A stretch of DNA of 45,788 bases, from the NCBI GenBank assembly GCA_964461915.1, contig CAYWVD010000002.1, positions 1 through 45,788 on the forward strand, read 5' to 3'. This stretch comes from an uncultured Candidatus Saccharibacteria bacterium (GTDB lineage: Bacteria; Patescibacteriota; Dojkabacteria; B142; OLB20). How positions within the stretch are numbered: position 1 is the stretch's first letter; every line of letters starts with the position of its first letter. Of this stretch, positions 3,348 through 41,479 are shown one piece after another. Both the position numbers and the translations under genes were made by a program. The notes under the pieces were generated by a model. That model worked only from the letters and a program-made list of their open reading frames with translations, ran no database searches and was not told the origin of the DNA.

Positions 3348-5934
3348 CTATAAACAAGTTTGGACTCGGGGGTAGTATTTTGAAGCAAAAACAGCAAGAT
3401 CAGAAGCATCGATTACGCCATCATTATTGAAATCCTTCCCACCACAGCCAGTCTTAACAATATTACTATCCGAACACTTCTTTTGATAAAACCTTGCAAA
3501 TTCTTCGAGATCAATATAATTGAGAATCGAATCAGAGTTACTATCCATAAGTCCACAATTAAATTCCAATTCGCTCTCACCTCCAGAACTTTTACCGTCA
3601 GCGCATTCACAATAATTGACCCTTATTTGATTATTTGAACATGTCTTAATACATATTTTTATTCCTTCATAATTATAATTAACGCATTGGTAGCCTTTTT
3701 CGTTCCCTGCACAATCAAGGTCACTCGAGCACCCCTTTTCACCGCATTGGAACACACCTGGATCAGGCTTTTCAGTTCGAGTAATTTTGGGTGATGGTGT
3801 TCTTGTCCCCTTTGGAGTATTCGTAGGTCTTTTTGTTTTCGTCGGTCTAGGTGTTTTACTAGGTCTTGGTGTTTTACTGGGCTTTTCAGTACCCTCACCG
3901 TTCTCTAAATCTATTTCGAAAGGCTCGCCAGCATTACCCATGCCATCATAAGCAATTACTTTAATAGTCTTAAGATTTTTTATCGGAGAAAACGAAATGG
4001 TTTTGAATTTGTTATAGATGGTTTTTCTAAGCTCTCCATTGAGCCATAGCTCAACCCTCTGAAGAGATTCATCATTTTCATATTTTAGATCAAGTTTTAA
4101 ACTTGTTTTGTTTTGTAGGGATTCAGCAGAATTACTTATTTCTACATTCGGTGGAGTACCCTTAGATTTAAAAGTTTCGGCAAGATTATTAAGCGTTTTA
4201 TTTAAAACTAAAACAGATGGATAATTAAAAAAATCATTACTGGAATCATCATGCCTCATTAGGCTATCAATTGAAGTTCGATAATAATCAGCATTTTTAC
4301 ATTCAATAAAATAATCATCTTTGGCCACAAATTTACTCCACGATTGATTAGGATTTTTTTGTGAACAATTTCTATCATTATATTGCATTGTCCCAGTTGT
4401 CCCATAACTATACTCGTCGAGTACTCCAAGCGTATGAGCAAGCTCATGAGGACCTACCAAAAAGACATTTCCACCATTCCCGAATGCAAAAATTTCCCCA
4501 TCAATCCAAGTGCAACCACCTTCTTTGTTATTCTGGTAGAGTATTCCTATCTTGTCATACTTTAAGTTTAAAGCCTTTGCTTTTGCTCTTACAGCCTCTT
4601 CATCACAAGTAACACAACCACTTTGAGTAGTTGTGCAGCCAAAGTTCTGACCTCTTTCCATGAATTGCTTTGTTACTCTGACTTGCGTTGATCTTATTTT
4701 AAATGGTTCCAACTTGTAAATTTCGTTTTCGACTTGTGAGAAGCTTTTTTCAAAAGAGTCCTCGGATGAAAAAGAATCGGAAAATATTAGAATATCTAGG
4801 AATCCATCCCCAACACCATAAGTAAAAATCCCTCCCTCTTGAAAATCATTAATTGTCTTATATTCAGCAATAGTTGTTCTAAATAGTTCAACATCTCCTT
4901 TTTTAAGAATCAGAAATTCCTGATCTTTTATTTGTGGAATGAGTGTAGAAAAATCAAGCTCATTAGGGACTTCGCCTTCTTGTGGGGGGGTGATAATAAC
5001 TCTTCATCGGTGTATCGATAAATTTCTCAAACAATGATATTCCCTTATTATCTAAAATTTCTATTGAAAAGGCTTTATTATCTGGTATAACCGACGATGG
5101 GAAGTATCCGTTTACAGATTTTATTTGTTTGAAGGAGAGTGTATCTTCGTCGATTTTATAAGTAAAATACAATTCAAAATAATCAATCTTATTTTTAAGA
5201 TATGATCCAGCACTTGATTCTACGGGCAATAAACTTTGCCTTTCAATTATTACTCCGATTAAAATGGATAAAATCCCTAACAGGATTACTAAGATAGATG
5301 AGAATATATTTCCCCTTTTTTCAACTATGTTTACATCTGAATTCTTATTATTCAAATAGGCAATTGGCAATAAAAATAAAAAAGCACCAATAGCAAAGTA
5401 TATCAATTCAAAAACAATTGGATCTTCATTAGAAGAATTCTCTAAAGGATCAATAATTCTAATTAACGAATTCCCTCTTGCATTTTGAAAGTCTCTTTCA
5501 TATTTTGGAATAATTATTGGCTTTGAATTATTTCCTAATGAGGTAAACTCAACCTCATTTAACGGATTCACCCCATATGTTTCTAGCCTACCTATTAATA
5601 AAGTATTTGAGATCGAATTTTTGTTGGTATATATAATTACACAAAGAGTATCTGAATCATAATCTCCAAATTCGTCAGTATCTTTACATCCAATTTCAGT
5701 TGGGTAAATCGAAGAAATGCTAGCAACTCGGCTTTGAGGGAATTTAAACTTTAGTAAAAATGAGTCTTCATTATAAACATTGTCTGTCGCTCGAATTTCA
5801 AAATAAATATTGTCTGTATAAATAATTTCTTCTTTTTCATAAGAATTTACTATATTCGTGCCGAAAAGGTAAAACATAAAAAGTCCCAAGATAAAGGACA
5901 TTATTGATAAGGTGATTTTAATGATCTGCTTCAT
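3348..5934 (-). pseudogene. frameshifted M64-like zinc metallopeptidase with Ig-like domain, P/T/K/R linker, Cys-rich module and dockerin-like EF-hand pair (~861 aa if restored); paralog of 5935..8742
   Basis: ORFs 4963..5934 and 3348..4712 join into one frame if the C7 run at 4984-4990 is C6. The restored junction reads HPPQEGEVPNELDF...GFLDILIFSD...LEPFKIRSTQV, matching GYLDIAIIGN...FEPYNFRRSQV in the paralog. HELAHTLGVLDEY and DSNSDSILNYID/DFNNDGVIDASD motifs are present. Confidence 0.85.
4984..4990. repeat. G7/C7 homopolymer at the frameshift site
   Basis: tgt-ggggggg-tg seen directly. Confidence 0.9.
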
Positions 5935-8742
5935 TTAATTGTAACAATCTTTAGATCTTGGCGAATATTTATTTGCGAAATGTCCAAGATCAATATAGTC
6001 GATCTGTCCATCCTTATTAGAATCTTTACCACCACAAGGCCCAAAGTTAACAGAACTATCTTTGCATTTGTCTCCATAGACAATTGCAAAACTAGCTAGA
6101 TCAATATAATTTAATATACCATCATTATTGATGTCCATTGGACCGCAATTCACGACTTTTTTTGATTCTTGGCAAACACAAATATTTATCTGCACCTCGT
6201 TCGGCTTACAAACTTTTTTGCATATTTTCACAGGATTCTCAGGATTCATTGCATTCGTTACACACTTGTAATCAGGACTCCCTAAACAATCTGAATCTTT
6301 GTTACAACCAGTTACGCCACATTTTAATTGTAATTTATTTGTCGAAGTCGGTGATGGAGTAGGAGATTTAATAACCTTTTTCGTAGGTTTTGGTGTTGGT
6401 GTTTTTGTAGGTTTTTTAGTGGGTTTTTCGGTTGGTTCCTCGGGTTCATCGGTTGGTTCCTCGGGTTCATCGGTTGGTTCCTCAGGAGTATCCGTTGGTT
6501 CCTCGGGTTCATCGGTGGGTTCCTCTGGCTCTTCGGTGGGTTCAGGATCATCTGTCGGTTCCTCTGGAGAATCTGTCGGATCATCATCTCCGATTCCATC
6601 AGGATTTAACTTTATTGTTGCTGATTTACCAGTTCGATCTATTGAGTCGTATGCCTTTATTGTAAGTTGAACTTCTTTATTCGGGATAGTGATATTTTGT
6701 AATGCTTTTGAAATATTTTCAAAATCCTCATATTCAGTAAACATAATTTCATTATCGATCCATAATTCTACTCTTTGGAGATGTTCAGCATTCTCGTAAG
6801 CTATTTCCATATCAATCTTTCCATTAACTTTCTCGTGATTTTTAGGACTTAAGATTTTAGCATCTGGAGCTGGATCATCTGTTGTAAATTCACCTGTAAA
6901 AGCGTCAATTTCATCTAAAATAATCTTTAAAGAAACGGCATTGTAATATCTGGAGTCTTCATCAAAGCGCATAACACTATCAAATGATGTTCTCCACAGA
7001 TTTGTTCTTAAGTCACATCCTTGACTATAGCTGTATTTGCCAACAATATCCTTCCATGCGGGATTTTGATTGGAATCATGACAGTTTAAGCCAGTAATCC
7101 TTAGGGGGGCAGAATTTGTCCTATTTGTATATTCATCAAGTAAACCAAGGCCATGCGAAAGTTCATGAACAAAAACGCTATCAGGAGTGCTTCCTACACA
7201 TAAAAAGAAATATTCTGTTCCTACACCAGTTGAGGTTCCACATCTTTTATTTTCATTATGTATTACCGCAATTTTGTCATATTTTATTTTCTTTTGATTC
7301 AAAATATTAGTTACTAGACTATAGTCACACATAATAAATGTAGACGCATCAGCAGTTCTACAGCTTAGACTCTGAGTATTTTCCACAATCGAAAATCTTA
7401 CCTGGGATCTCCTAAAGTTATATGGCTCGAATTCTAATACAGCCTTTTTTATACTCTCAGCTAACGTTTTAAAACTGTTCATACTATTACTGGTATAACC
7501 GTTTCCGATTATCGCAATGTCGAGGTAGCCATCATTTTTACTTGCTTGATCCATTCCATAAATATCTATTATAGTTTCATTATCAACATCTCCGTCAGGA
7601 TAATACTCAGATATATCGAAATCCTGGATTAGAGAATCATTCAAATAAACCGATAAAGCTTTTTCGCTCTTTAGCTGTGGAACATTCACAATTATATCGA
7701 GGACATCATAATCAGAAGGGATTGAATTTGCCCAATTAGGATCTGTTGGTAAATTAGTTTCGGGATCAATTATAGGGTTAATCAAAATCTCTGGAATGGT
7801 CACACCCAATTCGTAAAGAGAATTCCCAGTAAAATCCTCCACCTTAATTTTAAGGGGTGAATCAGGATTGCTTTGTATTTGTGGGATAAATCCAAAGCCA
7901 GGAGAAACTTCACTTGAAACAATCGAATTTGTCCTCCAATTATATTTTATTAAAACTTGTAAATATTTAACCGGTTTATTTAATTGAGATAATGCATCAA
8001 TTACAATGGGTGCTTGGCTCTTTTGCCCTAGATATAATCCCACAATAATTGAAATTATTCCGATAAAAGCTATTAGAACGACCTCCAACAGTAATTTCCC
8101 TTTGGATTTTGTGTTTTCTTTCAATGCCTTTTGTGAAGAGATCTTTTGCCTTATAAATAATGAAGACAAAACAAATATAACCCCTATGATAAAAAGAACG
8201 ATATTAAGGTATCCTATACGATCGATTGGGGCATCTTCTTTAAATCGTGGAATTGAATTGACCACACCTTTAAACTCATTCATATTCACAACAAACTGAT
8301 CTTTTGAAAATTTCGGCTCTATCAGTAAGTTCTCATCATACACACCTTGATTATCTGTAAAAGTAGATTCTTTAACAGAATTTACAAATGGATTCATCTC
8401 GTTTGATTGAATGGTCCCCCAAATCAATGGGATATTATCAGTGGTATTGGAATCAAGTGGACTAACCTTAAGACAAATTTCCGACTTTGATGAATATGTA
8501 CATGTATCTTTGATTTCGCCACTTGAAAACAATTCTGTGACAATGCTATTAGGGAATGATATTTTGAAATCATGCGAAATTGCCGAAGAAGAATCAGTTC
8601 CACTGAAAACTTCGAAATATTGAATAATTGCAAATCCTGGGCTATTTAGTCCATTGATTATCTTGACGCCCGCACCAATTATTAAAAGAGCCCCAATCAA
8701 TAATGGGGCTAGAAAATATAGGCTTCTCTTTATACTTTCCAT
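5935..8742 (-). CDS. three-TM surface M64-like (IgA peptidase-like) zinc metallopeptidase with Ig-like domain, acidic P/T/E linker, Cys-rich module and dockerin-like repeats
   Basis: HELSHGLGLLDEY (HExxH..L.DEY), YLDIAIIGNGY, SVMR, DINNDGILNYID and DSNKDGQIDYID. ATG at 8742 follows the TTG chosen by the ORF track. Confidence 0.8.
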   Translation of the reverse strand: MESIKRSLYFLAPLLIGALLIIGAGVKIINGLNSPGFAIIQYFEVFSGTDSSSAISHDFKISFPNSIVTELFSSGEIKDTCTYSSKSEICLKVSPLDSNTTDNIPLIWGTIQSNEMNPFVNSVKESTFTDNQGVYDENLLIEPKFSKDQFVVNMNEFKGVVNSIPRFKEDAPIDRIGYLNIVLFIIGVIFVLSSLFIRQKISSQKALKENTKSKGKLLLEVVLIAFIGIISIIVGLYLGQKSQAPIVIDALSQLNKPVKYLQVLIKYNWRTNSIVSSEVSPGFGFIPQIQSNPDSPLKIKVEDFTGNSLYELGVTIPEILINPIIDPETNLPTDPNWANSIPSDYDVLDIIVNVPQLKSEKALSVYLNDSLIQDFDISEYYPDGDVDNETIIDIYGMDQASKNDGYLDIAIIGNGYTSNSMNSFKTLAESIKKAVLEFEPYNFRRSQVRFSIVENTQSLSCRTADASTFIMCDYSLVTNILNQKKIKYDKIAVIHNENKRCGTSTGVGTEYFFLCVGSTPDSVFVHELSHGLGLLDEYTNRTNSAPLRITGLNCHDSNQNPAWKDIVGKYSYSQGCDLRTNLWRTSFDSVMRFDEDSRYYNAVSLKIILDEIDAFTGEFTTDDPAPDAKILSPKNHEKVNGKIDMEIAYENAEHLQRVELWIDNEIMFTEYEDFENISKALQNITIPNKEVQLTIKAYDSIDRTGKSATIKLNPDGIGDDDPTDSPEEPTDDPEPTEEPEEPTDEPEEPTDTPEEPTDEPEEPTDEPEEPTEKPTKKPTKTPTPKPTKKVIKSPTPSPTSTNKLQLKCGVTGCNKDSDCLGSPDYKCVTNAMNPENPVKICKKVCKPNEVQINICVCQESKKVVNCGPMDINNDGILNYIDLASFAIVYGDKCKDSSVNFGPCGGKDSNKDGQIDYIDLGHFANKYSPRSKDCYN
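6429..6585. repeat. imperfect 21-bp tandem array encoding PTDEPEE repeats
   Basis: Unit CGGTTGGTTCCTCGGGTTCAT, about 7-8 degenerate copies, in frame inside 5935..8742. Confidence 0.85.
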
Positions 8743-8792
8743 CAATTAATTTGAGGAATATATAAATATTTTCTGATATTTGAAAAGACAAG

Positions 8793-9791
8793 TCAAATGG
8801 CAAGAAATAAAGCCAGAAGAGGATAGACAGGCAATATATACCAGGCAAGTTTTGTTTGAGCCAATGTGAACAATAATATTGAAAGGAATATAAATATTAT
8901 TGAATATTGTATTACCTTTTTAACAAGAAAATTTTTCGGTTTTCTTAGGGTAAATAATTTAAAAACGACCGGAATCCCAAGAGCATTCATCCTTGGATCA
9001 AGTAATATCCCCAAATAGAACAGGATTGATTCATTATGCCCTTCTAAAGGAGTTATTGCCCTACTTAGAATGTGATAATCCACAAAGTTATCCACAAAAC
9101 CCGCCCCGAATTTTAAATACATGATAACTATCCATAGAATGATTGGGATTGTGAATAATACTATCCCAGCAATGATTTCTTTAACTCGTTTTTGTTTAAA
9201 AATGTAAAACGAATTGATTAGTAAAGGAATAAAAACAAATGGCCCCTTTGTTAAAAAACCTAAACTTAAAGATAAATAACTAAGGTATATATTTTTTGTA
9301 GTTAATTTTTCAGATATAAAAATCAAGAAAAAGGATAAAACTATGAAAAATATTTGAAGGGTATCGAGATCGAACGAACTAAAAGTATGCGAAGCAAAAT
9401 ATCCCGCAGGATTAACGAAATACAATTGGGGAATCAATAATATCAGGTATAGAAACACTATTGCTTTTGAAAAACTTACATTCTTTTTTATTAAAATAAA
9501 TAACAAAAAAACGATACCGAGTGCAGCAATCACACTCACGATGCGCCCACTATGCTCAATTCCGGTTATTGGAGAGATTATTATCGAAAGATAATAGAAC
9601 AAAGGGGGCTTTTCAAAGAAATTTTCATCATTTAGTTTTAAAAAAATTGATTGCCCTTGTATTGTATCTTTAACTACTTCAATATTTGTTTGTTCGTCCC
9701 AGCGTTCAAAACCTGCTTGAAAAGCCCCATTTAAGAGCAATATCAAAAATATGGAAAAACCAAGGATGGTGAGGATTTTTTTAAGGATCAT
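8793..9791 (-). CDS. ArnT/PMT-like GT-C membrane glycosyltransferase
   Basis: WDE, FEKPPL, LTKGP and TKLAWYILPVYP motifs; multiple TM helices. Confidence 0.8.
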   Translation of the reverse strand: MILKKILTILGFSIFLILLLNGAFQAGFERWDEQTNIEVVKDTIQGQSIFLKLNDENFFEKPPLFYYLSIIISPITGIEHSGRIVSVIAALGIVFLLFILIKKNVSFSKAIVFLYLILLIPQLYFVNPAGYFASHTFSSFDLDTLQIFFIVLSFFLIFISEKLTTKNIYLSYLSLSLGFLTKGPFVFIPLLINSFYIFKQKRVKEIIAGIVLFTIPIILWIVIMYLKFGAGFVDNFVDYHILSRAITPLEGHNESILFYLGILLDPRMNALGIPVVFKLFTLRKPKNFLVKKVIQYSIIFIFLSILLFTLAQTKLAWYILPVYPLLALFLAI

Positions 9792-9797
9792 TTAAAA

Positions 9798-11852
9798 TCA
9801 ATAAACTACAATACCGGTATTGTTAAAATAGCCCCATAAGCCTAGAAATTCACTCTTAGTTTTTGTCCAAACACCTCGATTTGAATCATTCAAAATCACA
9901 TGAGTTGGATTATCAATTGAACCTTTGTATCCAACTACAACATAAGAATGCATTCCGGTTATAGCTCGAATGTCTTTACCACCCGGCGTTGTCCAATGGT
10001 ATTCGTTCCCAGCGTATGAATAGCCATTATGGGCCCAAATGACGACGGGATTACCATTTCTAACTTCTGTGAGAAGGCCGGTTAAATTCCAGCCGGTTTT
10101 TATTGAATTTGATCTATATTTACTTATTAAATTTGAAATTGGGCCCCAATACACCCCATACCCCTTGGTTTTTCCATAAATATCACCAACATATCCAGTG
10201 TATGGATCGCCAAAAATGTTATTCGCTTCATCGTACGGCGTAGTATCTTTGGCGATCTGAGAATGTAAGGTCATTACATCCTTATATACCCCCCTATATG
10301 CTAAAGCCATTCTTGTGGCTTCAAGATTGCATGAGAATCTTAGCCTTTGATAATACACAGGCACATTTAATTTGAATACCTCGTCCTGTGTTTTAAATGT
10401 GAAAGAGAACTCCTTATCACTATCAATGCCATATATACTCTTAACTCCGCTTGCTATTGTTACTTTGTAGTTTGTCGAATAGCTTAAGCTTGAATTTGGA
10501 TTAAAAATCAGCGTCGATCCATTCCAAGAAAATGAACCGGAAACTCCGGGACTAATACTGAATTTTGATTCCGCTGATGAATGATCCACTTCCTGATCAA
10601 AATGCATATTAATATTGGAATTGATTCCAACAGTTGAGGCATATCCAGCAGGATCAGTTGATTCAAGCCTTACTTTTCCAATTGTGCTAAATTTTGAGAT
10701 AAAGTCATTTTCAATAACTCCACCAATCGAACTTCTAAGCCCCTTTTTAATTGTCAATTGATAGTTGGTTTCTTTAGCAAAGGGATCATGTGTGTATTCA
10801 AAACTTTTTGGATCTTTCCATGAAGCCACTCCTGCAACACTCGGCTCTAGTTGAATGTAATTTGTTAAATCATCTTGTACCATATCATTATCAAAAACCA
10901 CAGAAACAGGAGAATTTGGAATAACTTTATCTCCCTTAGGTTCTACAGAACTTAATAAAGGCTCTCGAACAGTTTCAAAATTACCCTCAAAAAGAGTTTT
11001 AGGCAGGCCCAAAACTTCGGCAACTTCCCCACTACCCAGATCAAATCTTGCAGACGAACCAATTAATGAATATGAATATTTTGTAGATTGGTTTAATCTA
11101 CTTGAAATATTAACTTCAACAGTTTCACTGCTAACCATCATTTGAGTTTCGGCTACAGGATCGATTTTGAACTCCCATTTATAATAAAGGCCAGCTAGGT
11201 TATCTAACTTAAATGTTAAATTAACATTATCAGTAAGCATATCAACAGTTCCCGATACTGGAGCAACTTCCACCGTACTTATTTCTTTTGGTGTAAATGA
11301 ATCGACACCAAACTCCCAAGGTTCTTTTTCAGAAAGCGGATTGCCGATCCCTGCATAATACAAAAAGATCTTTTCGTTTAAAGGCAATGAAAGTTTTGGA
11401 TAAAAAACCAGCTTTCTTTTAATATATGGAAAGTTTTTGTCAACAGGCTCAATTTCCCATTTTCCTGCGACCTCAGGATAAATTTGTGGTTTTAAAGTTT
11501 TTTCATCGAGCGGGCGGTTGAATATTACGAAAATATTTTGGCGATTATCATACAAAACCTCGTCGGCTTTTGGATATTGAGCTACTACATGAGGATCACC
11601 GAGTAAATCATACCCTAAAAGAAGTAAAAAAAAGATCAAACCAAAATCCACCAAATAAAACGATTTTTTGAAAAATAAATAAGCCCATTTTTTAAACCCA
11701 GTCAACGAATCGGCCTTATGGACATTTAATTCATTTTTCCTTTTTTTTACAATATACCTTACTAACAGGATTATATTAAAAACAAATAATAATAAAAGGA
11801 CTATTGCACCTATGATTAAAGCATTTTCGTAACTTAAACCTCTTTCAATCAT
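9798..11852 (-). CDS. membrane-anchored C39-like cysteine peptidase with tandem Big_5 (SbsA-type) Ig-like domains
   Basis: Two N-terminal TMs; repeated P...I.V.F..........F.I.P...G Ig-like units; C-terminal YQRLRFSC...HSYVVVGY...ILNDS (Q, C, H, D). Confidence 0.8.
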   Translation of the reverse strand: MIERGLSYENALIIGAIVLLLLFVFNIILLVRYIVKKRKNELNVHKADSLTGFKKWAYLFFKKSFYLVDFGLIFFLLLLGYDLLGDPHVVAQYPKADEVLYDNRQNIFVIFNRPLDEKTLKPQIYPEVAGKWEIEPVDKNFPYIKRKLVFYPKLSLPLNEKIFLYYAGIGNPLSEKEPWEFGVDSFTPKEISTVEVAPVSGTVDMLTDNVNLTFKLDNLAGLYYKWEFKIDPVAETQMMVSSETVEVNISSRLNQSTKYSYSLIGSSARFDLGSGEVAEVLGLPKTLFEGNFETVREPLLSSVEPKGDKVIPNSPVSVVFDNDMVQDDLTNYIQLEPSVAGVASWKDPKSFEYTHDPFAKETNYQLTIKKGLRSSIGGVIENDFISKFSTIGKVRLESTDPAGYASTVGINSNINMHFDQEVDHSSAESKFSISPGVSGSFSWNGSTLIFNPNSSLSYSTNYKVTIASGVKSIYGIDSDKEFSFTFKTQDEVFKLNVPVYYQRLRFSCNLEATRMALAYRGVYKDVMTLHSQIAKDTTPYDEANNIFGDPYTGYVGDIYGKTKGYGVYWGPISNLISKYRSNSIKTGWNLTGLLTEVRNGNPVVIWAHNGYSYAGNEYHWTTPGGKDIRAITGMHSYVVVGYKGSIDNPTHVILNDSNRGVWTKTKSEFLGLWGYFNNTGIVVY

Positions 11853-11885
11853 TTCTCTTTCATATTACTTATATAAAAATTCTGT

Positions 11886-14328
11886 TTACGGCTCAGGATT
11901 CCTAAGCCCATAGATCCTATCAAGTGTAGTAAATATCACTGGCCCCTTCTCAGCCTCAGCTGAGTAATTGATTACATAATCCATAACCTTATTCATTGTG
12001 GCATTATCATAAGTCGTAAACCAATGTGGATGGCTCATAAAATTGACGACATTCATTTTCGAAAGTGGCATCATTTTATCAGAATATATTTCATTAAATT
12101 TGCCAATCATTACCTCTGGAGGATTATTAGTTGTATCCCGCCCGTTATTCGGCACTTCGATTATTCCAAAATTGTCATTATCACTGGCCTTGTTTTGATT
12201 CGAATTCGAAATCATATATGGAGGCTGCGAAGGGGCCAAGTCCCAAAAGCCGACTGCATTCCCCCAATTATATTTATCTCTACCGGATGTATCAATTTTA
12301 AAACCATACTTTGGAAGGACTTTCAAATTCTTTAAATCAATAAACCAACCGCCCGCTCGATAAGTCACTGGCTTTGGGAAGTTATACTCTTCAAAGAAGT
12401 TCAATGAACAATCAAGTAATTCACCAAATTCCTCTGGTGAATATGCGCTGGTTAAAACATCATGGCAATTATATCTGCTATCCCATTTGGGCTCAGTTTT
12501 GTAATCTAGTCCGCATGCTTTGAAAAGGTCACAATGCATATGCAGATGCATTCCGATCTCATCGCCTAAGGCATACCTATCAAAGACAAATTTTTTAAGG
12601 GCATCTTTTCTAATTTCACTCACATCGTTTGCTTCAAAAACTCTTGGCGTAACAAGTTGAACCATCGGAATTTTATATTTCGATGAAATCTTCGACATGG
12701 CGCTCATATTCGAATCACTAATGTCATAGCCCTCCCAATCAATAGTCCAGACAACATATAGAGGATATGACACCATAAATTCAATCGGTTCACTCTTTTT
12801 ATTAGCCCCGGTTATAAACACCTCAACGCGATGTGTCCCGATTGCGTAATCTGAAGGCTCAATTTTATAGTTATAATTTTCAGAAGCGTTGCGTTCGATC
12901 CTGTCGGCCAATTTACCATCCACAAAGACATCTATTCCACGATAGTCATAGCCTTTGTTGTTTACAGTTATATCCACAATTCCACTTTTATACTGGTCAA
13001 ATGACGGATCGTCGCTTTCGATCTTAAAGATAGTCTTTCGACTAATAAATGAATCTATTGTGAAGTTTGCATCAACTCTTTCGATATAGCTTTTATCAAC
13101 AACATTAAATGAAAGTACACTTGCAAAATCTTGATTGTAATTAGTTATCAGCCTTATCATGAAGATTCCAGCCAACCAAACTGCAGCTAAGATATAGAAA
13201 GCTCTAAAATAAACAGAATCAAAAGTCCTTAAGGAAAATCTTTCCCTAAGCGGATTCAAAACTTTATGAGAATTCGTGATATAGACAAGTATAGTTCCCA
13301 ATAAAACTATTATTATGTAGTACCCAAACATCGCTAGTGGCTCACCCAGCTTAATTCCTAATCCATATTGACCAATGAATAATAGGACCAGATGAACAAT
13401 ATAGTAATCAAATAGATTTTGCCCAATAAACGAAACTACTTTTGATTCACCATTCCCGACTAACTTTTCGATTATAAACAAAAGTATGGAGGTATAACTT
13501 AACCCAATTAATATAAACAATATGCTTGGAGGCCATCTAACGATATCCAATCCTATAGATGGATAAACGTTCCCGGCTACAAGGATTATTAGGGTAACAA
13601 ATCCAATAAAAGCCATGAGTCCATTTTTAAGCCTTAACTCTTTTGCATAATCTTTAAAGGCAATCAATTTCCCCCAATAAGCTCCGAGCAAGAAAACTAT
13701 TGAATATTGAAATATTGGAAATCTATACCAATCTGAATGCCCTACAAATATTGATTTTATGAACAAGAATTCATTTGGAACATCAACCTTGTATAAGAAC
13801 ATTCCTAAGGCATAAAGCCCGATTCCCATTACAAGCGTCAAAAAAAGGCTATTAGTAATATTTTTTAATAATGGCCTCAGATAATAGATTAATAGGTAGA
13901 AGAAAATAAAAGGAAGTAGAAACTCTACATAATTGGGTACATCAACAAATAGGATCAATCTAATTATCCTACTTAAAATATCTACATTGGAATCCAAAAG
14001 CTCTGGCAGGTATCCTATTAGGACAATTAAATAATACGATAGTAAAAGTTTAAAGGCCTTGTGTGGAATTTTTTCTTTCTTTTCATCAAATTCTTCTTTT
14101 GAAATGTCCGGTCTCAAATATGACAAAAACATTCCGATACCAGACAAAAATAACAAAACAGTGAAAGTTGTCAGATTAATAAAATTAATTATTGGAGCCA
14201 AATAAGGATCGGCTCCAAGGCCCACAAAGTAAGCCGTATGGCCAAGAATCATCAACAAGCAAGTGATACTTTTTAAGATGTCTATGGTACTAATTCTCTC
14301 GTGTTTTTTTATGTCAGTTTTTTAACAT
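11886..14328 (-). CDS. fusion of a multi-TM acyltransferase-3/OpgC-like domain, an Ig-like domain and a polysaccharide-deacetylase-like (NodB-type) domain; 5' end out of frame at an A6 run
   Basis: RISTIDILK..LLMILGH lies in frame upstream of the TTG called at 14258. C-terminal TIDWEG, EIGMHLH, YRAGGW and MSHPH motifs. ATG at 14328 is 1 nt out of frame. Confidence 0.7.
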
Positions 14329-14412
14329 ATATCTAAATATATCAAGATTTTTTTAACACATCTATAACAAACTATGACTATCTAGAACCATTTACTGTTC
14401 TATTTACTATTC

Positions 14413-14438
14413 CTGACAGTTTCTGATATAATCTGACA
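14413..14438. promoter_or_regulatory. three direct repeats CTGA(C/T)A phased at 10 bp, overlapping a TATAAT box
   Basis: ctgaca 14413, ctgata 14423, ctgaca 14433; TATAAT at 14427-14432; 20 bp upstream of the wHTH regulator ATG. Confidence 0.6.
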
Positions 14439-14458
14439 TTGTTTTTCAATTAAGAAAA

Positions 14459-15787: not shown

Positions 15788-15793
15788 CCCCCT

Positions 15794-17524: not shown

Positions 17525-17581
17525 AAATCTTCCCCCAAATCCCATCCTTTAACCCAAGTTCCGCCTAAAATTCGATATCTA

Positions 17582-17665
17582 TGTCAGAAATCATTTATTT
17601 GTCAGAAAGACTTGCCTTTAGCGTCAACTTAAACAGGCTGCCTGTCAAGCGTTTTGCCATGTCAG
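17582..17665. promoter_or_regulatory. cluster of TGTCA(G/A) motifs upstream of the GreA-like gene
   Basis: tgtcag 17582, 17600, 17660; tgtcaa 17643; cgtcaa 17622. This is the reverse complement of the CTGACA repeats at 14413-14438. Confidence 0.4.
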
Positions 17666-17707
17666 GTTATAAAATATGACCATAGTTAAATCTTTTAAAA
17701 AATCAAA

Positions 17708-18163
17708 ATGCAGAAAAAACAACAACTCATTAATAAACTAGAAAAAGACCTTATTGTTTTAAGAAAAAGACGAGAGAAACTTTTAAAGAAAGTTGACGAA
17801 GCTAGATCTCAGTTTAATGAAGAATATGAAAGTCCGATACTCGAAGACTGCGTTTTGGAACTTCAATCGGTTGTAAGCCAAATCTGTGATTATGAGAACA
17901 CTATTAAAACAATGCGGGCTGGTAAGGACAATATTTCAATCGAAAAAGAAGAATCTATACAAGTAGGCGATTGTGTTACACTAAAAAATCATACCCACAT
18001 TAAACAATTCTGCATTGCCAAACACTCTGATTATGTTAATCCTGATTTGGGTATTATTTCAGGGAATTCACCCATTGGAAGACAACTCTTAAGTAGTAGA
18101 TTTGGCCAAAACATTGAATTATCAATTAATGGCACAAGCACTGAATATCAAATCCTTCCATAA
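17708..18163 (+). CDS. divergent GreA/GreB-family factor
   Basis: N-terminal coiled coil plus C-terminal IQVGDCV...GIIS..SPIG..LL....G motif; tip GDLSENAEY replaced by FNEEYESPIL. Confidence 0.75.
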   Translation: MQKKQQLINKLEKDLIVLRKRREKLLKKVDEARSQFNEEYESPILEDCVLELQSVVSQICDYENTIKTMRAGKDNISIEKEESIQVGDCVTLKNHTHIKQFCIAKHSDYVNPDLGIISGNSPIGRQLLSSRFGQNIELSINGTSTEYQILP

Positions 18164-18197
18164 TAATCACATTCATCTTTTTCAATTTAAATAATAA

Positions 18198-18222
18198 AAA
18201 TCAGGGGCTACACCCCTGATTT
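18198..18222. terminator. bidirectional intrinsic terminator between convergent genes
   Basis: AAATCAGGGG-ctaca-CCCCTGATTT with A/T-rich flanks. Confidence 0.8.
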
Positions 18223-18247
18223 ATTAAATCTTTAATATAAGCTAGTA

Positions 18248-18538
18248 TTACTTTCTCTTCTTTTTTGCTTTCGATTTTGAAGATTTCTTGCCAGTAGATC
18301 TAAATGATCCGCCCGATAATTTGGCTCTTAGTTCTTGACCCAAAAAAGGATAACCAAAAAGAGGTGCAATTACACAAAAATCCATTATTCCTGAAAGTAA
18401 AAATGCTGCTCCGCCGAAAGCTAATGCTAATCCATAATCCGTTGGATACATAACTCCTAAAATGAGTAGATAAAGACCAACTAATGCTTTTATAAACCTT
18501 GCAGTATTACTTGAAACTATTTTTAGGAAAGTTTTCAT
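18248..18538 (-). CDS. DUF2892/YgaP-like small membrane protein
   Basis: R..K...G...L...., two TMs, then G..DFC....LFG; basic tail. Confidence 0.65.
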   Translation of the reverse strand: MKTFLKIVSSNTARFIKALVGLYLLILGVMYPTDYGLALAFGGAAFLLSGIMDFCVIAPLFGYPFLGQELRAKLSGGSFRSTGKKSSKSKAKKKRK

Positions 18539-18619
18539 GCGGGCAGATAAATAATAAATTAATACTTAATATTAAAGATAAATAAAAAAGAACGCAACAA
18601 AGTTTTGACATTATAAAAA

Positions 18620-18657
18620 TTGACTTCACCCTCAATAATATCTAAGCTATTAGATAT
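18620..18657 (+). promoter_or_regulatory. sigma70-type promoter with a palindromic operator over the -10 box
   Basis: TTGACT (18620)-N17-TAAGCT (18643); perfect inverted repeat ATATCTAA-gcta-TTAGATAT at 18638-18657. Confidence 0.55.
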
Positions 18658-18701
18658 AGATTTAATCAACCATGTCATTTTTAACAAAAACAATTAATAC
18701 A

Positions 18702-18711
18702 ATATATATAT
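18702..18711. repeat. (AT)5 microsatellite in the signal-peptide coding region
   Basis: aca-atatatatat-tgta seen directly. Confidence 0.85.
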
Positions 18712-21700
18712 TGTATTAACAACTTTGTGTTTGACCCTATTATCAGCCCTTGCTTTCCAAATCAAGATTAGCGCCGCAGTACAATATCTCCCATGGCAAT
18801 GGACCGAAACCAACTATAATTATTATGACACTTACCAATTTTCGGACACTGACTCTTCAAACAATATTTATGTAACGAATTTGGCCGAAAAGCGAGTTGA
18901 AAAATATGATTCAAACGGCGTCTTTGTTCGTAATTATTATGCTGATTGGAATTCTCCAGATAGTCAATTCTATAGTATTAAAGGTATTGCAATTGATTCA
19001 TCCAACAACTTAATCGTAATTGATAATAATATCAATAAAGTGCATATTATCTCGAATGCAGGCAATCTTATTTCTGAATTCGCTACACAAGGCACTGCCG
19101 ATAATCAATTAAGTAGTCCAAAGGATGTCGCCGTTGATGCTGCCGGAAATATTTACATAGCCGATTATGGGAATAATTTTGTAAAAAAATTCGATTCATC
19201 AGGAAATTATATCTCAAAGTTCTCGGTAACTAAGCCGATCGGTGTTGCCGTAGATTCCTCAGGAAATATTTATGTTTCTCGCGAAGCTCATTATGTTCAT
19301 AAATATGACAGCGCATTCGTTTTGCAATGGTCTCATGGAGGATATGGTAGTGGAGATACTCAACTTGCCTATCCAAAAGGAATAGATGTTGATTCCGTGG
19401 GGAATGTCTGGATTGCGGATTCGGGAGTGTATAGATATAAAAAACTTGATACCAATGGAAATTATATCTATAAATTCGGAACTTATGGAACTTCAAATTA
19501 CCAATTTAAAAGTCCCGCGTGTATTTCAGTCGATTCCGCGGGCAACATAATAACAATCGACGATAATGAAATTAAGAAATTTTCAGTTCAATCTACTGGA
19601 TATCAAATCGGCAATTTAAATGCAGGGCTCGATATAATCGATAGAACTAGTAAAATTAACATTGAATCCGGAGCGCCATATGGTGCTACAGGTTCAGCGT
19701 ACCCTTTAAGAATATTAACTACAGCCGGTAGAATTTTAAGCGATGTTAACGCCGATTTAACTGGCGATCTTTCTTGGCCTTTAGTCGTTGGTGATAGTGA
19801 TAGGGCTACCGGAAAATCATATATTGCAAATTTAACTGCAGAACCAGGTGCATCAGCAACTCATACTTTATATGTCCCAATTCCACTTGGTGTAGTCAGT
19901 CGAGAAGTCTACATTTGCCCTGACGCCACAGATATGGCAAGCGTTAACACATCATGCACTAATGGAGTTACAAGATCTTTTGGGTCAAGTTCTGAATCTT
20001 TTGGGAATATAACTATTACACAAACCGGCATACTTGGCGATGGCGTAACCTATTGGAAAATCGAAGGTATGACTGGTAGTGGTGGTATTTATGAAGAATT
20101 GAGTTTCTCCGGCGCTGGTGATGGTTCCCTTGGGAATCCCTATCAGATTACAACATGTAATCAATTACAAGAAATACAAAATAATTTAAGTTCCAATTTC
20201 ATACTAAACAATGACATTGATTGCTCTTCACTGGATTACAACGGTGGAATTTTTATGCCCATCGGATCTTCTATAGACCCCTTTACCGGAAGTTTGAATG
20301 GCAATAATTTCAGCATTTCAAATCTTGAGATGGACAAACCCTATGATTCTGTCACTCAAGTAAATAATGTAACAGGATTATTCGGCTATACTAATGGGGC
20401 AAATATCCATGATCTTGATTTAATTAATAGCACCATTTATGGGAATAATTATGTAGGCTCATTAATAGGATACGCTGTGGCCTCAACAATTTCAAATGTT
20501 ACAGCCTCAGGCAATATATTTTCTAATAGATTTAATTACCAAAACGAATACATCGGTGGATTAATTGGATACATAGATGGCGCTTCCACTATTGATCTTG
20601 CTTCATCATCTGTAATCATAAGTTTTGGTGATGATGTTAACCTAGTTGGTGGCTTAATCGGTGTAATTAATGGAACTACAATAATAAATGATAGTTTTGC
20701 TACTGGCAGCATCAGTCTTGGCATTGATTCATATTGGGTTGGTGGTTTTGTGGGTATGATTGGTGAAGAGATGAGTAATGCAGATGTAATAATTAATGAT
20801 TCGTATGCAACTGGAAACATTTTAGTTGGTGAGGATGCCCCTTGGGACGATGGGAATAATTATTGGGTGGGTGGATTTGCAGGACAAATTGGAAGTAGCG
20901 AAAATAATAATGTGAATAATACTACAGGTACGATCACTAATTGTTATGCTACTGGAAATATTGAAGCTAGATATGCAGATAATACTTGGATTGGAGGATT
21001 CTCCGGAGAAATATCCGGTTATAGCGTTGTAACAAACTCATATTCAACCGGGTCGATCACTTCTGGGCAAGATGCTAATTCTATTGGAGGATTTACAGGC
21101 AGTATTCGAGGCATAAACCCGGAAATTTATCTTTCATGGTCATCCGGCGATATCACTTTAAATAGCTATGATGCCTTCGGTGTGGGCGGTTTTGCAGGCT
21201 GGGTCGGTGTCGGTGGATATACTAATGATTATATTATCGTGGAAGATTCATATTCACTTGGAGATATTTCAGTTGGAGCGACTGGAAACGAAACAGAATG
21301 GTCTGCTATGATTGGTGGATTTGCAGGCTGGATTAAAGGAATGATAACAACGAATCCTATGGAAATTTCGAATTGCTTTAGCATGGGGAATATTTCTGCT
21401 ATCGGAGAAGTAATAGAAGTTGGAGGATTTGTTGGGGGCATTACGGGTAATGGCACAAATGGGACTGGTTCAGTCGTAATTGATAATACCGCCAGTCTTG
21501 GTAATTTTGTCGAAGGCTATTATGAATTAGGCGGTTATGCTGGAACAATCGATGTAGCTACAGCACAATCTTTGGTAATAAAAAATTCATACACTAGATC
21601 AAATATTGTTTCCAAATTTATCGAAATTGGAAATCTTGACCAAGCCTTAATTGCCGGCTTTGTGCCCTATGTTGATACAACTGGCACAAGTTCAACGAAT

Positions 21701-22741
21701 ATTTTTAATAATTACTCAACTAGTAGCTTTAGTCAATTTGATAGCGTTGGGGCAACCATATCAACTGCTCTTACTAATCCAATAATAATCACACAAGATA
21801 CTTTTGCAGTTGACGATCCTACCGGTATAACTCAAGGAACTTATTTGATTATTAATAGACCCGTTGGAGCTCCTTTTGCTACTACTTTAACAGCTCCAAT
21901 GAATGCGACCCAATTTTCAGCCGATGTTATAGATGCAAGTGGCCTTTATGAATACTCTAGAATCACAATAGACCCGGGCGATCCTTCAAAAGAAGAAGTT
22001 GTTCAGATTAGCACTATCGCAGGTAATGTATTAAGTCTTTCCTCAAGAGAAGGGACAATTACTCATGATGCCGGCGCAGTAGTAGTTCTGGATCAATATT
22101 CTATAAGTGAATTAGTTTATGTAGAAGCAGTTAACGGTAATAATATAACAGTACGAAGAGCTGAAGGTTACACTACCGAGAGGGACTTCCCGGCGGGAAC
22201 AACTGTAAATGATTTTCAATTCCCCTTGCCAACAGTAAAGGGTTTTGTTGATACAATTAGTCCTGGTAATGTCCTTTTTGAAAATAATTATTGGGACGCT
22301 CAGCTAAGTGGAGTATCAGATTCTGCTGAAGGAATAGGCCTAACTACTGCACAAATGAAAGATCCTGACAGCTTTATCGGATTTAACTTTTCTACATACT
22401 GGTCAACAAACCCACTTGTAAATGATGAATATCCATTCTTATCTTTTGATGATCCTACAATTGTTTCATTTGATACTACCGAAGGGCTTCTTCAGCCATC
22501 ATTCCATAGACATACTCATGTTTACAATATCGATGTAGATACATCTGTGGATACAATTTCATTTAAGGCCGATGCCACCGAAGCTCTAATTCGACAAATC
22601 GATATTGATGGATCCCCAATTGCAGACAATGTTTACACAGGGGCCCTAACTTTAGTGGACTGAGCTAATCAATTTATTTATAACCTCACATCAAGAGATT
22701 TCAGATCAGTCAGCTATATTATCAATGTGAATAAAGTGGGT

Positions 22742-22929
22742 ACGCCTGCAACACCTACACCAACGCCAACCGCTACGCCAACAAGCACTCCAACTTCAAC
22801 ACCGATAATAACCGCGTCTCCAACTAGCACTCCTACACCTACGCCCACAAATATTCCGGAGGTTAGTTTGACTCCTGCAATCTCAACAGTGACGCCGACT
22901 TTATCACCTAGTGCGACGATAACACCGAC
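22742..22929 (+). repeat. low-complexity Pro/Thr linker coding region
   Basis: TPATPTPTPTATPTSTPTSTP...; codon-degenerate repeats; approximate bounds. Confidence 0.75.
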
Positions 22930-24135
22930 CGAAATTATTGATACAAATAGATGCCTTATTGCAAATTCAATTATTAAAAAAACCTATACTGGTTCAGGCA
23001 TTAATCTAAACTTTAATATCGATAATGCCAATTTATGCATAATTAAATATGGCAGAGCTGGAAGTAGCTATATTGGGCAGGTTCCTGCAATTAAAAACAA
23101 TAATAATTTTTCAGCCTCCATAAATTTTCAAGAGTTTTCAGCAGATGAAGATATTGCATATAGGATAGAATGCTCTACCGGTGATACTCAATGTACTCTA
23201 TCAGACACCATTTACAGGAACATAAATCCACCAACAGTTCCATTTTTATCGTTCAACTTTAATCTTGGAGTATATGAGTTTATTACATTAACCGGCCTAG
23301 CGCTCGGTATAATCCCAGTATCCATTGCCTTCCCTAAATTCTGGCTTTATGCATTTCTTTGGATTTTCCCTAAAAAGAAAAAGAGTCCATGGGGAATAGT
23401 TTATGACTATCAGAGCATGTCCCCTATTCCATTTGCTGCAGTTAGGATACTTGATTTAAGTGGAAATGTTTTAAAACAAACAGTATCTGATCTTCAAGGG
23501 AGGTTTAGCTTTATCATGGATCCAGGCCAATATCAACTAATGGTCGAGCATAAAGACTACAACAAAGTAAATAAGACTATTTTTATTGCTAATCAAGATG
23601 CTCAAATCAATCAAGATGTATTAATGATAAAAGTTGCAAATACAAATGCATTCTGGCCAAAATTAAAGAAAAATTTAGGTGTTTTTGCATCAAAAACTTA
23701 TTTGTTTATTGGATTCTTTGGCCTAATATTTGCTCTGCTTGCTATGATTACTAATTTTGAATTGGTAAACATAATAATATTTGGATTATATATAGTCCAA
23801 TTAATTATTTACCTTTCGATTCATCCAGATAGAAATATCGGATTTGTGAATGATCTTGATAGTAAAGAACGAATAAAGGGAGCTTTCGTTAGAGTCCAAG
23901 ATGTTGTTCAGGGTAGACAAATCGATATCCAAATGACTGACGAAAAAGGCCGATTCGGCTTTAACTTAGATAAAGGTGAATATCTTTTACTTACTGATGC
24001 CGAAGGCTATGAAGTTGCTGGAAGCACACTACCAGAAACCATCTTAAATTCGGGCGTAAAAGCATTTAAATACGATTCAGTACAGAAGAATGTAAACTTC
24101 GAGATGAAAAAGATCAGAACCTAAGAGATGGAGTT

Positions 24136-26097: not shown

Positions 26098-26098
26098 T

Positions 26099-26611
26099 TT
26101 ATTTTGTAACAGCAATAGACCTAGTTTCGCCCTCTGGAGCGCTTATTACAATCCTTAAGGCACTATTCACACACAAAGCATATAAGGTGTTTTTTGAATC
26201 TTTAGCTTTGGGATCATATGGCATTTCTGATAAATGGCTACCAAGTAAATAACCTTCTAAATTTATTAAACCATCATTTGAACCTATGTATTGAGAATTC
26301 GGACATTTAGGGTAAGTGTTAATTATTGACCCATCATAATCATGTTCATCTAAGAATGTATCTAATGCATGGGCTATACTATCAATATCTGTCACTCTCT
26401 TTAAATCTCGGACTTCAGGTATGGATTTTTGATAATTAAAAAGACTCAGCATATATGCCAAACTAAAACTAATTATGATGATTACCAAAAAAAGCTCTAA
26501 TCTACCAATTTTCCCCAAATTCCTAACCACAATATTTAAAAAAAACAAAACTGCAAGAGATATCACAAAGATTATCAATACCCCTGTAAGTAAATCGAGA
26601 TCTGATACCAT
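26099..26611 (-). CDS. pilin/pseudopilin-like globular domain on a two-TM anchor, no prepilin motif
   Basis: RDLKRVTDIDSIAHAL..F......YP.C...L...L..MP.DP resembles PulG-type heads; no G/F-x4-E site. Confidence 0.6.
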   Translation of the reverse strand: MVSDLDLLTGVLIIFVISLAVLFFLNIVVRNLGKIGRLELFLVIIIISFSLAYMLSLFNYQKSIPEVRDLKRVTDIDSIAHALDTFLDEHDYDGSIINTYPKCPNSQYIGSNDGLINLEGYLLGSHLSEMPYDPKAKDSKNTLYALCVNSALRIVISAPEGETRSIAVTK

Positions 26612-26628
26612 TGTGAGTTAAATAAAAT

Positions 26629-27520: not shown

Positions 27521-27525
27521 ATTAA

Positions 27526-41471: not shown

Positions 41472-41479
41472 AATAATAT

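Follow-up and report, generated by a model that had tools for sequence, protein, structure and literature searches.

The question raised by this locus is whether reading frames that are broken at simple repeats in cell-surface genes represent contingency (phase-variable) switches or mutations of a more ordinary kind. The window, by which we mean the whole 45,788-nucleotide (45.8 kb) stretch of DNA that was analysed, comes from a Saccharibacteria-like bacterium found in wastewater samples of the sewage or digester type. A RecA-query search of genome contigs was used for taxonomy, and the best RecA match was a Candidatus Saccharibacteria MAG with 73% identity, in agreement with the CPR-like organism proposed in a first-pass annotation of the DNA. 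That annotation had described a C7 run at position 4984 (site 1), an A6 run at 14318 (site 2), an (AT)5 repeat at 18702 (site 3) and an in-frame TGA at 22661 (site 4), which were thought to interrupt 3 surface or envelope genes. All 4 features are present at these positions, the genes concerned are of the envelope or surface class, and rlmN, recA, holA, pilB, pilC, the kinase gene and hydA are intact, as had been reported. Three of the 4 breaks are real mutations, and they affect 2 cell-surface genes (sites 1, 3, and 4); the third gene, which encodes an acyltransferase and was listed because of the A6 run, probably does not belong among the interrupted genes.

At site 1, a homopolymer run splits a gene for an M64-like metalloprotease that is located next to an intact paralog:

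4984..4990, minus strand: C7 run (G7 on the plus strand) at which the frame shifts; with C6, a single 861-aa ORF would be restored.
4963..5934, minus strand: ORF A, the N-terminal, membrane-spanning part (about 316 codons) of the split M64-like metalloprotease gene.
3348..5003, minus strand: the ORF B frame, 551 open codons covering the last two-thirds of the split gene.
5935..8745, minus strand: intact tandem paralog of 936 aa, Peptidase_M64-like according to Pfam and a BLASTP comparison with the repaired gene.

ORF A, the stop codon of which is located 8 codons past the C7 run, had a weak match to DUF2207_C and aligned with residues 1 to about 320 of the 936-aa paralog. The ORF B frame contains a HELAHTLGVLDEY zinc-protease motif, which corresponds to HELSHGLGLLDEY in the paralog, as well as a P/T/K-rich linker, a Cys-rich region, and a dockerin-like C-terminus. 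Removal of one C from the run in silico gave an 861-aa protein that was colinear with the adjoining paralog across the break (BLASTP, E=2e-48). The Pfam M64 profile (PF09471) matched the paralog with a score of 25.3 bits, just below the cut-off of 26 bits, and gave no match to the split gene. M64 peptidases are IgA-peptidase-like zinc metalloproteases characterised by an HExxH...DEY motif. Distant homologues with at most 36% identity matched ORF B only from their residue 180 to 380 or so onward, and they therefore have an N-terminal extension like ORF A. Site 1 is thus a real frameshift.

The same C7 run was observed in the Logan contigs L001, L002, and L094 from SRR12489243 (the same contig in 3 samples), SRR12489245, and SRR12489246, and it was identical across contigs from at least 5 sequencing runs, with no contig breaking at the tract. 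Searching with the repaired 861-aa protein gave no homologue, an exhaustive HMMER search recovered only relatives with 36% identity or less, and the JGI scan yielded one contig of 1.9 kb that ends short of the C7 run. A relative that covers site 1 with either a diverged or an intact allele was not found in these searches, which therefore provided no comparative allele for this site. C6 was presumably the ancestral state, as suggested by the paralog and by the parallel with site 3.

Sites 3 and 4 are both located in the gene for a giant surface protein with NHL, GLUG, and Cadherin-like domains, which is arranged as follows:

18672..18719, plus strand: 5' remnant of the giant surface-protein gene, consisting of an ATG and 14 codons and ending at a TAA through the (AT)5 frameshift.
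18702..18711, plus strand: (AT)5 repeat, derived through a 2-nt insertion from the ancestral (AT)4, which keeps the frame.
18725..22663, plus strand: NHL/GLUG/Cadherin-like ORF of 1312 codons, beginning at a TTG and ending at a TGA.
21580..21585, plus strand: A6 run in the surface gene, intact in the window; A5 in contig L121, giving an independent frameshift.
22661..22663, plus strand: in-frame TGA derived from GGA (Gly), inside a Cadherin-like β-sandwich domain.
22664..24124, plus strand: downstream part of 486 codons, which in the ancestral 1818-aa protein formed the C-terminal module for membrane anchoring.

The downstream part completes the Cadherin-like domain and also encodes a P/T linker, a domain that contains Cys, transmembrane segments, and 2 CarboxypepD_reg domains. 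Comparison with orthologs, as suggested in the first-pass annotation, showed that the in-frame (AT)4 allele exists in nature and that relatives have GGA in place of the TGA. Contig L098 contains an uninterrupted gene of 1818 aa with (AT)4 and GGA at exactly sites 3 and 4. The ATG at 18672 is out of frame in the window owing to (AT)5 and in frame in L098, L112-L115, L117, and L121, where it encodes a signal peptide (MSFLTKTINTIYIVLTT...). GGA was also found at the position of the TGA in L099, and glycine is present at the aligned position in the P0275 protein and in 4 of 5 distant homologues. The distant homologues are single polypeptides, and colinear alignments across sites 3 and 4 were obtained with P0002-P0014 and with L098/P0276. 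Furthermore, the Pfam Cadherin-like domain scored 33 bits (profile positions 8-88) for the joined sequence versus 23.4 bits (profile positions 8-57) for the truncated one. A scan of genome contigs with the 1312-aa protein gave no match. We conclude that site 3 is a real frameshift and that site 4 is a real nonsense mutation from GGA to TGA in which no repeat is involved. The claim that removal of one repeat unit repairs each frameshift was borne out at sites 1 and 3, in silico and, for site 3, by the natural (AT)4 allele that is in frame; it is doubtful at site 2, and the point mutation at site 4 lies outside this type of repair.

The 2 lesions thus affect the same gene on the same haplotype, as predicted by inactivation of the gene. 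The dN/dS value in comparison with the intact allele in L098 was about 0.08 both before and after the TGA, and most of the divergence therefore arose while the gene was intact and is older than the lesions. Further stop codons or frameshifts were not present in any of the fragments. The additional frameshift in L121 is known from a single ENA contig, for which an assembly error is possible.

To the (AT)5 state belonged only one haplotype of flanking SNPs, among them those at 18727-18790, which was that of the window and was represented by 5 distinct contigs from 3 accession series. The (AT)4 state was found on at least 3 other haplotypes in 7 contigs; samples with (AT)4-type strains were JGI 3300009682 and 3300010351, ERZ795063, and ERZ28615405. 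The 2 states co-segregated perfectly with about 11 linked SNPs and there was no homoplasy. This association of tract state with haplotype points to one inherited event and not to recurrent switching, and (AT)5 looks like a single inherited insertion. In comparison with strain ERR3438382, blocks of 100% identity alternated with blocks of 45% to 85% identity, and the M64 paralogs of the window were replaced in that strain by a CBASS-like island with an integrase, located beside a 332-aa gene. The acyltransferase gene has a rearranged form in L118, and the surface gene of L121 has the separate A6-to-A5 change noted above. As judged from these sequence comparisons, the region is a strain-variable recombination mosaic and its surface genes are accessory; such a location would make the genes dispensable or subject to fluctuating selection.

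The remaining site, the A6 run at site 2, is associated with the start of the acyltransferase gene:

11886..14312, minus strand: membrane O-acyltransferase with Acyl_transf_3 and DUF2334 domains, the frame being counted from a conserved in-frame ATA at 14310-14312.
14314..14328, minus strand: mini-ORF ATG TTA AAA AAC TGA, read in a different frame from the acyltransferase and including the A6 run (14318-14323).

The mini-ORF starts with the ATG at 14326-14328, ends 1 nt before the ATA, and is unchanged in L005, L119, and L118. Contig L120, from a strain with 93% identity, was without the A6 run and also without an in-frame ATG, GTG, or TTG. A frameshift at the A6 run is not demonstrated, since the lineage that has no run equally has no canonical in-frame start. 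Both lineages lack an in-frame ATG, GTG, or TTG before the conserved first transmembrane helix of the acyltransferase, both retain the in-frame ATA with the same spacing to a conserved Arg, and in both a tiny ATG mini-ORF ends at or beside the ATA, the one in L120 being a different mini-ORF of 2 codons (ATG CCA TAA) that overlaps the ATA. This arrangement hints at re-initiation coupling. The TTG codons of the acyltransferase are CTA or CTC in L120, and the codon changes between L120 and the window upstream of the ATG were 9 synonymous versus 1 non-synonymous. Coding constraint thus reaches upstream of the called start as far as the conserved ATA, which suggests a non-canonical start.

The match to Pfam PF01757 scored 53.2 bits compared to a cut-off of 31 bits and covered profile positions 3-325 of 326. 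It began 10 residues upstream of the first TTG and included the N-terminal helix with the conserved His, which places the protein within the Acyl_transf_3 family. The dN/dS value was 0.06 in comparison with strain L005. A homologue search with the first 80 residues of the acyltransferase returned one fragment, which led to contig L118, in which the acyltransferase is rearranged. The acyltransferase is thus intact and constrained, and its conservation in 2 lineages indicates that translation probably starts at the ATA at 14310-14312; site 2 is probably a non-canonical start and not a lesion. AUA and AUU starts are permitted in translation table 11, as exemplified by the AUU start of infC, and the ATA start is predicted here from sequence conservation in 2 lineages.

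To place the tracts in the context of the window, we examined the other repeats. C7 is the sole G/C run of 7 nt or longer in the 45.8 kb, and (AT)5 is the longest dinucleotide repeat. Both are one unit above tracts that are stable, namely 4 other C6/G6 runs at 7104, 10289, 29171, and 32256 and 4 other 4-unit AT/TA repeats at 5628, 23787, 36240, and 43685, all of which are unbroken. The window also contains 41 A/T runs of at least 7 nt, all without lesions, and C7 is the single exception among 36 coding homopolymer runs of at least 7 nt, the other 35 being intact. For homopolymers of at least 6 nt, 2 of 43 were broken in envelope genes versus 0 of 87 in other genes (Fisher p=0.11), and the comparison of envelope and housekeeping runs that the first-pass annotation had suggested gave no significant enrichment.

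Two homopolymers and a dinucleotide repeat are classic error-prone contexts, and the first-pass annotation had retained assembly error as an alternative. We consider a sequencing or assembly artefact extremely improbable: independent short-read assemblies from several accession series contained the same sequence at every site, the other long coding runs were intact, the TGA is located outside any repeat, and the flanking SNPs tracked the allele states. The proposal that slipped-strand mispairing makes reversible switches of the C, A, and AT tracts, so that surface genes change very often between on and off states in episymbiont populations, deserves more consideration. Surface genes are the targets, sites 1 and 3 are the longest tracts of their kind in the window and a one-unit change switches the frame at both, AT-tract alleles in both frames occur among strains, L121 has a further homopolymer frameshift in the same surface gene, and contig L008 terminates inside the AT tract. 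However, the flanking haplotype predicted the tract state without exception or homoplasy in 5 (AT)5 and 7 (AT)4 contigs, C7 was constant in at least 5 sequencing runs with assemblies passing straight through it, one of the 4 lesions is a point nonsense mutation, and the A6 run at site 2 is probably not a frameshift lesion. Neither C7, (AT)5, nor A6 is clearly longer than the background, in line with the earlier remark that the tracts are short for classic contingency loci, and the lesions fall in scattered ordinary runs, not in one dedicated tract. Among the assembled contigs, both length states were not observed on one haplotype at site 1 or site 3. Judged from assembled contigs, phase variation is therefore unlikely, though minority lengths may occur within a sample, and we give high-frequency switching little credence.

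It could also be argued that the genes work despite the lesions. Translation of the surface protein might start at the TTG at 18725, which would leave a shortened signal peptide, and the UGA might be read through or recoded as glycine; the halves of the split protease might each function alone, or +1 ribosomal slippage on CCC CCC A might fuse them. No fragment showed secondary decay, the TGA falls exactly on a conserved Gly codon, the Cys-rich domain after the TGA lacks its own signal peptide and its export would depend on the upstream part, and in the 24 codons that follow the TGA third positions account for 6 of the 7 nucleotide differences. This synonymous pattern was, however, inherited from intact alleles, since L005 is a recombinant whose sequence past the TGA is of the L098 type, and for the same reason we rejected a downstream omega of 0.09 as a sign of translation past the TGA, since L098 and L099 show that L005 acquired intact-allele sequence there. 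UGA codes for glycine (code 25) in other CPR lineages, and an in-frame TGA at a conserved glycine in a CPR-type genome resembles the situation in Gracilibacteria and Absconditabacteria. In contrast to code 25, the window contained a single internal TGA in about 14,000 real-gene codons, TGA is the normal stop codon of 4 genes, GGA is present in conspecific strains, and RecA is closest to that of a Saccharibacteria MAG. An alternative code with UGA as a sense codon was rejected on these grounds, and GGA in close relatives identifies the TGA as a new mutation. Selenocysteine, a read-through element, and a suppressor tRNA in the window were likewise discarded: Rfam gave no element, SECIS included, at the gathering threshold, and ARAGORN gave no tRNA gene in the window. 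Programmed frameshifting at CCC CCC A, A AAA AAC, or (AU)5 was dismissed, as there was no stimulatory context and relatives are unshifted at site 3. No hungry or stop codon follows CCC CCC, the shift at (AT)5 would need -1 or +2 slippage for which the slippery motif is absent, and the direction of the shift at site 2 differs between lineages, which argues against a programmed event. Taken as a whole, we find it unlikely that the genes are functional as they stand. Relaxed selection was not seen in the broken genes, and expression could therefore persist in part through the TTG at 18725, low-level UGA read-through, or separate working fragments.

The account that we favour, and consider probable, is that these are recent, lineage-specific mutations that inactivate or attenuate accessory surface genes, with no lesion at the A6 run and an ATA start for the acyltransferase; decay, which the first-pass annotation had named as an alternative to phase variation, comes closest to the evidence. 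Homologues or a paralog align colinearly across the lesion at sites 1, 3, and 4, and close relatives carry the intact allele at sites 3 and 4. According to this scenario, slippage by one base from C6 to C7 would have split the gene for the 861-aa M64-like membrane metalloprotease, beside which an intact tandem paralog remains. A one-unit insertion from (AT)4 to (AT)5 at about codon 11 and a G-to-T change from GGA to TGA at about codon 1331 both hit the gene for the membrane-anchored 1818-aa surface protein. The lesions would be ordinary replication errors at ordinary short runs, with no dedicated hypermutable switch; they are inherited with the flanking haplotype and would have passed from one strain background to another by homologous recombination. 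A reduction or loss of function is expected, and the loss or attenuation of the surface genes would be tolerated and perhaps even favoured.

The pattern resembles that of strain-specific pseudogenes and null alleles that result from slipped-strand indels and nonsense mutations. The shared features are indels of one unit in short runs, a nonsense substitution of one base, the presence of intact alleles in sister strains, haplotype inheritance, 2 hits in one gene, and a variable, recombining locus. A difference from ordinary null alleles is that relaxed selection was not detectable here, which suggests that the lesions are very recent. Simple-sequence contingency loci are represented by poly-G/C tracts in Campylobacter, Helicobacter, and Neisseria and by tetranucleotide repeats in Haemophilus. 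As in those loci of host-adapted bacteria, a one-unit change toggles the frame of a surface gene, and both frame states of the AT tract occur in nature. Unlike them, the tracts described here are much shorter, do not vary within a haplotype in the contigs, and comprise several ordinary runs plus one point mutation.

That the lesions affect surface genes only, together with the independent break in L121, also fits selection for switching off such genes, which is the role of contingency loci. The C and AT tracts might then serve as low-rate reversible switches; null alleles of the adhesin-like and protease genes would be favoured again and again, with phages or the host as examples of the selective pressure, and recombination would spread them. 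We regard this as a long shot, but it would amount to a primitive, population-level contingency behaviour that is new for CPR bacteria. A full-text literature search found no paper describing contingency loci in CPR bacteria and, to our knowledge, strain-level surveys of this kind are rare in uncultured members of the group.

For annotation, the results call for caution: the 2 split genes should be flagged as disrupted, and the start of the acyltransferase has been miscalled and is probably not an ATG. True contingency loci would, as far as the full-text search goes, be the first known from the candidate phyla radiation and would bear on how episymbionts vary the surface used for attachment. 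The evidence favours the more ordinary case of strain-level knock-outs of accessory surface genes, and the locus provides a small, concrete case of recombination-mosaic variation in surface genes among strains of a wastewater Saccharibacteria-like species.

The region between 3.3 and 24 kb encoded surface and envelope functions, and within it the first-pass annotation had placed four reading-frame lesions, proposed as contingency (phase-variable) loci. The relevant features were the following:

Within 3.3-24 kb: two M64-like metalloproteases in tandem
Within 3.3-24 kb: 332-aa membrane protein with a weak ArnT-like match
Within 3.3-24 kb: protein with Big_5 and C39-like peptidase matches
Within 3.3-24 kb: acyltransferase with Acyl_transf_3 and DUF2334
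Within 3.3-24 kb: giant NHL/GLUG/Cadherin-like/CarboxypepD_reg surface protein
4963-5934 (-): ORF A, N-terminal piece of a split metalloprotease gene, with its stop 8 codons past the C7 run
5003 down to 3348 (-): second open frame, ORF B, C-terminal piece of the same gene
4984-4990 (-): C7 run, site 1
14318-14323 (-): A6 run at the acyltransferase start, site 2
18702-18711 (+): (AT)5 repeat in the giant gene, site 3
22661-22663 (+): in-frame TGA in the giant gene, site 4

The G+C content of the window was 34%, leaders were AT-rich, starts were almost all ATG, none of 39 genes was preceded by a Shine-Dalgarno-like sequence, and the stop codons were TAA (28), TGA (5) and TAG (3). The closest RecA was that of a Candidatus Saccharibacteria MAG (73% identity), and the description of the host as CPR-like is therefore reasonable. 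Some sample labels, among them the "MUNK22 ... METAG" scaffolds and several JGI Ga0116xxx metagenomes, hint at a possible sewage or digester-type origin. In this small-genome, CPR-like organism, a fused [FeFe]-hydrogenase large and small subunit gene (Fe_hyd_lg_C and Fe_hyd_SSU; 34865-36013, -) adjoined the type IV pilus genes. A 199-aa protein matching the PADLOC candidate defence family PDC-M05A (1.6e-32) was located directly 3' of recA and was followed by a fused HEPN and Polbeta-nucleotidyltransferase protein (40872-42310, +).

Sites 3 and 4 fell within one ancestral gene. Distant homologues of 1531 to 1893 aa were single polypeptides of the same architecture, their signal peptide aligned with the repaired N-terminus, 4 of 5 had Gly at the TGA position, and the TGA fell inside a Pfam Cadherin-like domain, which it divided. 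Conspecific strains, retrieved through look-up of neighbouring conserved proteins, provided the decisive evidence. The contig L098 (JGI 3300010351, 95% identical) contained one unbroken gene of 1818 aa with (AT)4 and GGA, GGA was also present in a second contig, L099, and the homologous protein P0275 had Gly at the aligned residue, so that both lesions are derived. Site 3 is a +2-nt slippage insertion and site 4 a G-to-T nonsense mutation. Both were carried by the same haplotype, and a second hit in an already inactivated gene is expected. Another contig, L121, had an intact start and (AT)4, yet contained an A6-to-A5 deletion at the equivalent of 21580-21585 (L121 3440-3450) with the frame still open downstream; if genuine, the deletion would have knocked out the same gene independently at another ordinary run, although an error is possible in a single contig.

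The window and contig L005 were 100% identical across sites 2 and 3, and L005 changed to L098-type sequence immediately past the TGA. In the post-TGA frame, the 2 sequences differed by dS=0.30 with dN/dS=0.09. We rejected this value as a sign of continued translation because L005 is mosaic there, so that the synonymous pattern is a legacy of intact alleles. When the intact allele served as reference, dN/dS was about 0.08 before and after the TGA alike, a result that establishes the recent age of the lesions and nothing more. Some residual expression of the surface protein may occur, from TTG 18725 or via UGA leak-through.

The mosaic structure extended over 8600-28200, where blocks 100% identical to L005 (12900-15800 and 17700-20700) alternated sharply with blocks of 75-85%, about 45% and 90-95% identity, and one breakpoint lay within about 15 nt past the TGA. 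This pattern points to frequent homologous recombination among strains. A 576-aa gene (15794-17524, +) with a weak NACHT-type P-loop match, preceded by a 442-aa Trans_reg_C protein, had only about 45% nucleotide identity to L005 8069-9817 (dN 0.71) between flanking genes that were 100% identical. The gene may have undergone allelic replacement or be diversifying strongly, and it had no PADLOC match.

At site 1, deletion of one C yielded a single protein of 861 aa, of which residues 1 to about 690 aligned through the break with the adjacent 936-aa paralog (E=2e-48). An exhaustive HMMER search recovered only distant relatives of ORF B (at most 36% identity), aligned only from their own residue 180-380 or so onward, and an N-terminal extension comparable to ORF A is thus the rule in the family. 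Site 1 is a genuine frameshift in one of two tandem paralogs. The C7 allele was the same in Logan contigs of SRR12489243 (one contig, 3 samples), SRR12489245 and SRR12489246, none of which ended at the tract, and a search of related sequences for a diverged or intact allele recovered none.

Inside the 936-aa paralog (5935-8745), three independent Logan contigs and the long contig from the opposite side all ended at one position, about 6457, which suggests a repeat or strain-variable junction. In strain ERR3438382, a CBASS-like island with an integrase adjoined the 332-aa gene at the place of the M64 paralog pair. This island (L106 1-3761, beside the homologue of 8793-9791) encoded SMODS/AGS_C and SLATT_4 proteins, a NUDIX protein and a phage-type integrase, so that the region on its left side is an island site of variable content.

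The proposed frameshift at site 2 was reasonable, since the first in-frame TTG lies 10 residues inside the Acyl_transf_3 domain and the sole nearby ATG is out of frame. Evidence to the contrary came from L120, in which the gene was 93% identical, the upstream region differed and there was no A6 run, but an in-frame ATG, GTG or TTG was missing there as well, with CTA and CTC in place of TTG at 14258 and 14255. In the 15 codons Arg9-Leu23, 9 changes were synonymous and 1 was conservative, the out-of-frame ATGs required opposite shift directions in the 2 lineages, and both had an in-frame TAA and, a short distance on, an ATA separated by 4 variable codons from a conserved Arg. The acyltransferase was under strong overall constraint (dN/dS 0.06), and the A6 sequence was unchanged in L005, L119 and the rearranged contig L118. 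On the simplest reading, the gene carries no lesion and its translation would begin at a non-canonical ATA codon, perhaps in coupling with a very short mini-ORF just upstream. In both lineages, the ATA directly followed or overlapped the stop of an ATG mini-ORF of 2-4 codons (14310-14328, -; L120 3925-3945), an arrangement by which this CPR bacterium may initiate without AUG or couple re-initiation to the mini-ORF. In L118 (ENA ERZ17807692, 4 samples; homologous to 13990-14340), the first 290 nt or so of the gene were fused to unrelated sequence and the product was 124 aa long; L118 represents a deletion or rearrangement allele, unless the contig is a low-coverage chimera.

Thus, three of the four lesions (sites 1, 3 and 4) are real, with coordinates and repairs correctly described, the affected genes are surface genes as claimed, and the listed housekeeping genes were all intact, whereas site 2 is a constrained gene with a probable ATA start. 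Assembly error, the alternative raised with the contingency proposal, is excluded. The contingency interpretation itself was unsupported by the cross-strain data. Among 12 distinct contigs compared at site 3, (AT)5 was present in 5 (SRR12489243, ERR3438382, ERR3438384, ERR3438387 and ERR14964769), all with an identical 11-SNP signature just downstream, and (AT)4 in 7 (JGI 3300010351, JGI 3300009682, ERZ795063, ERZ27257409, ERZ28614917, ERZ15185696 and ERZ28615405), spanning at least 3 other haplotypes. The tract state followed haplotype in perfect linkage with zero homoplasy, which fits a single inherited mutation rather than recurrent switching. The tracts at sites 1 and 3 were also unremarkable in length: the window contained four further copies of each presumed pre-insertion state, C6 and (AT)4, all stable, and 35 other coding homopolymers of at least 7 nt were unbroken. 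Low-rate reversible switching at these tracts is improbable. A literature search found no report of contingency loci in CPR bacteria, so that the proposal would be a new one, should read-level evidence come to favour it again. The data are best explained if ordinary slippage and point mutation have recently inactivated or attenuated accessory surface genes in particular lineages, within a region that varies between strains and recombines freely.
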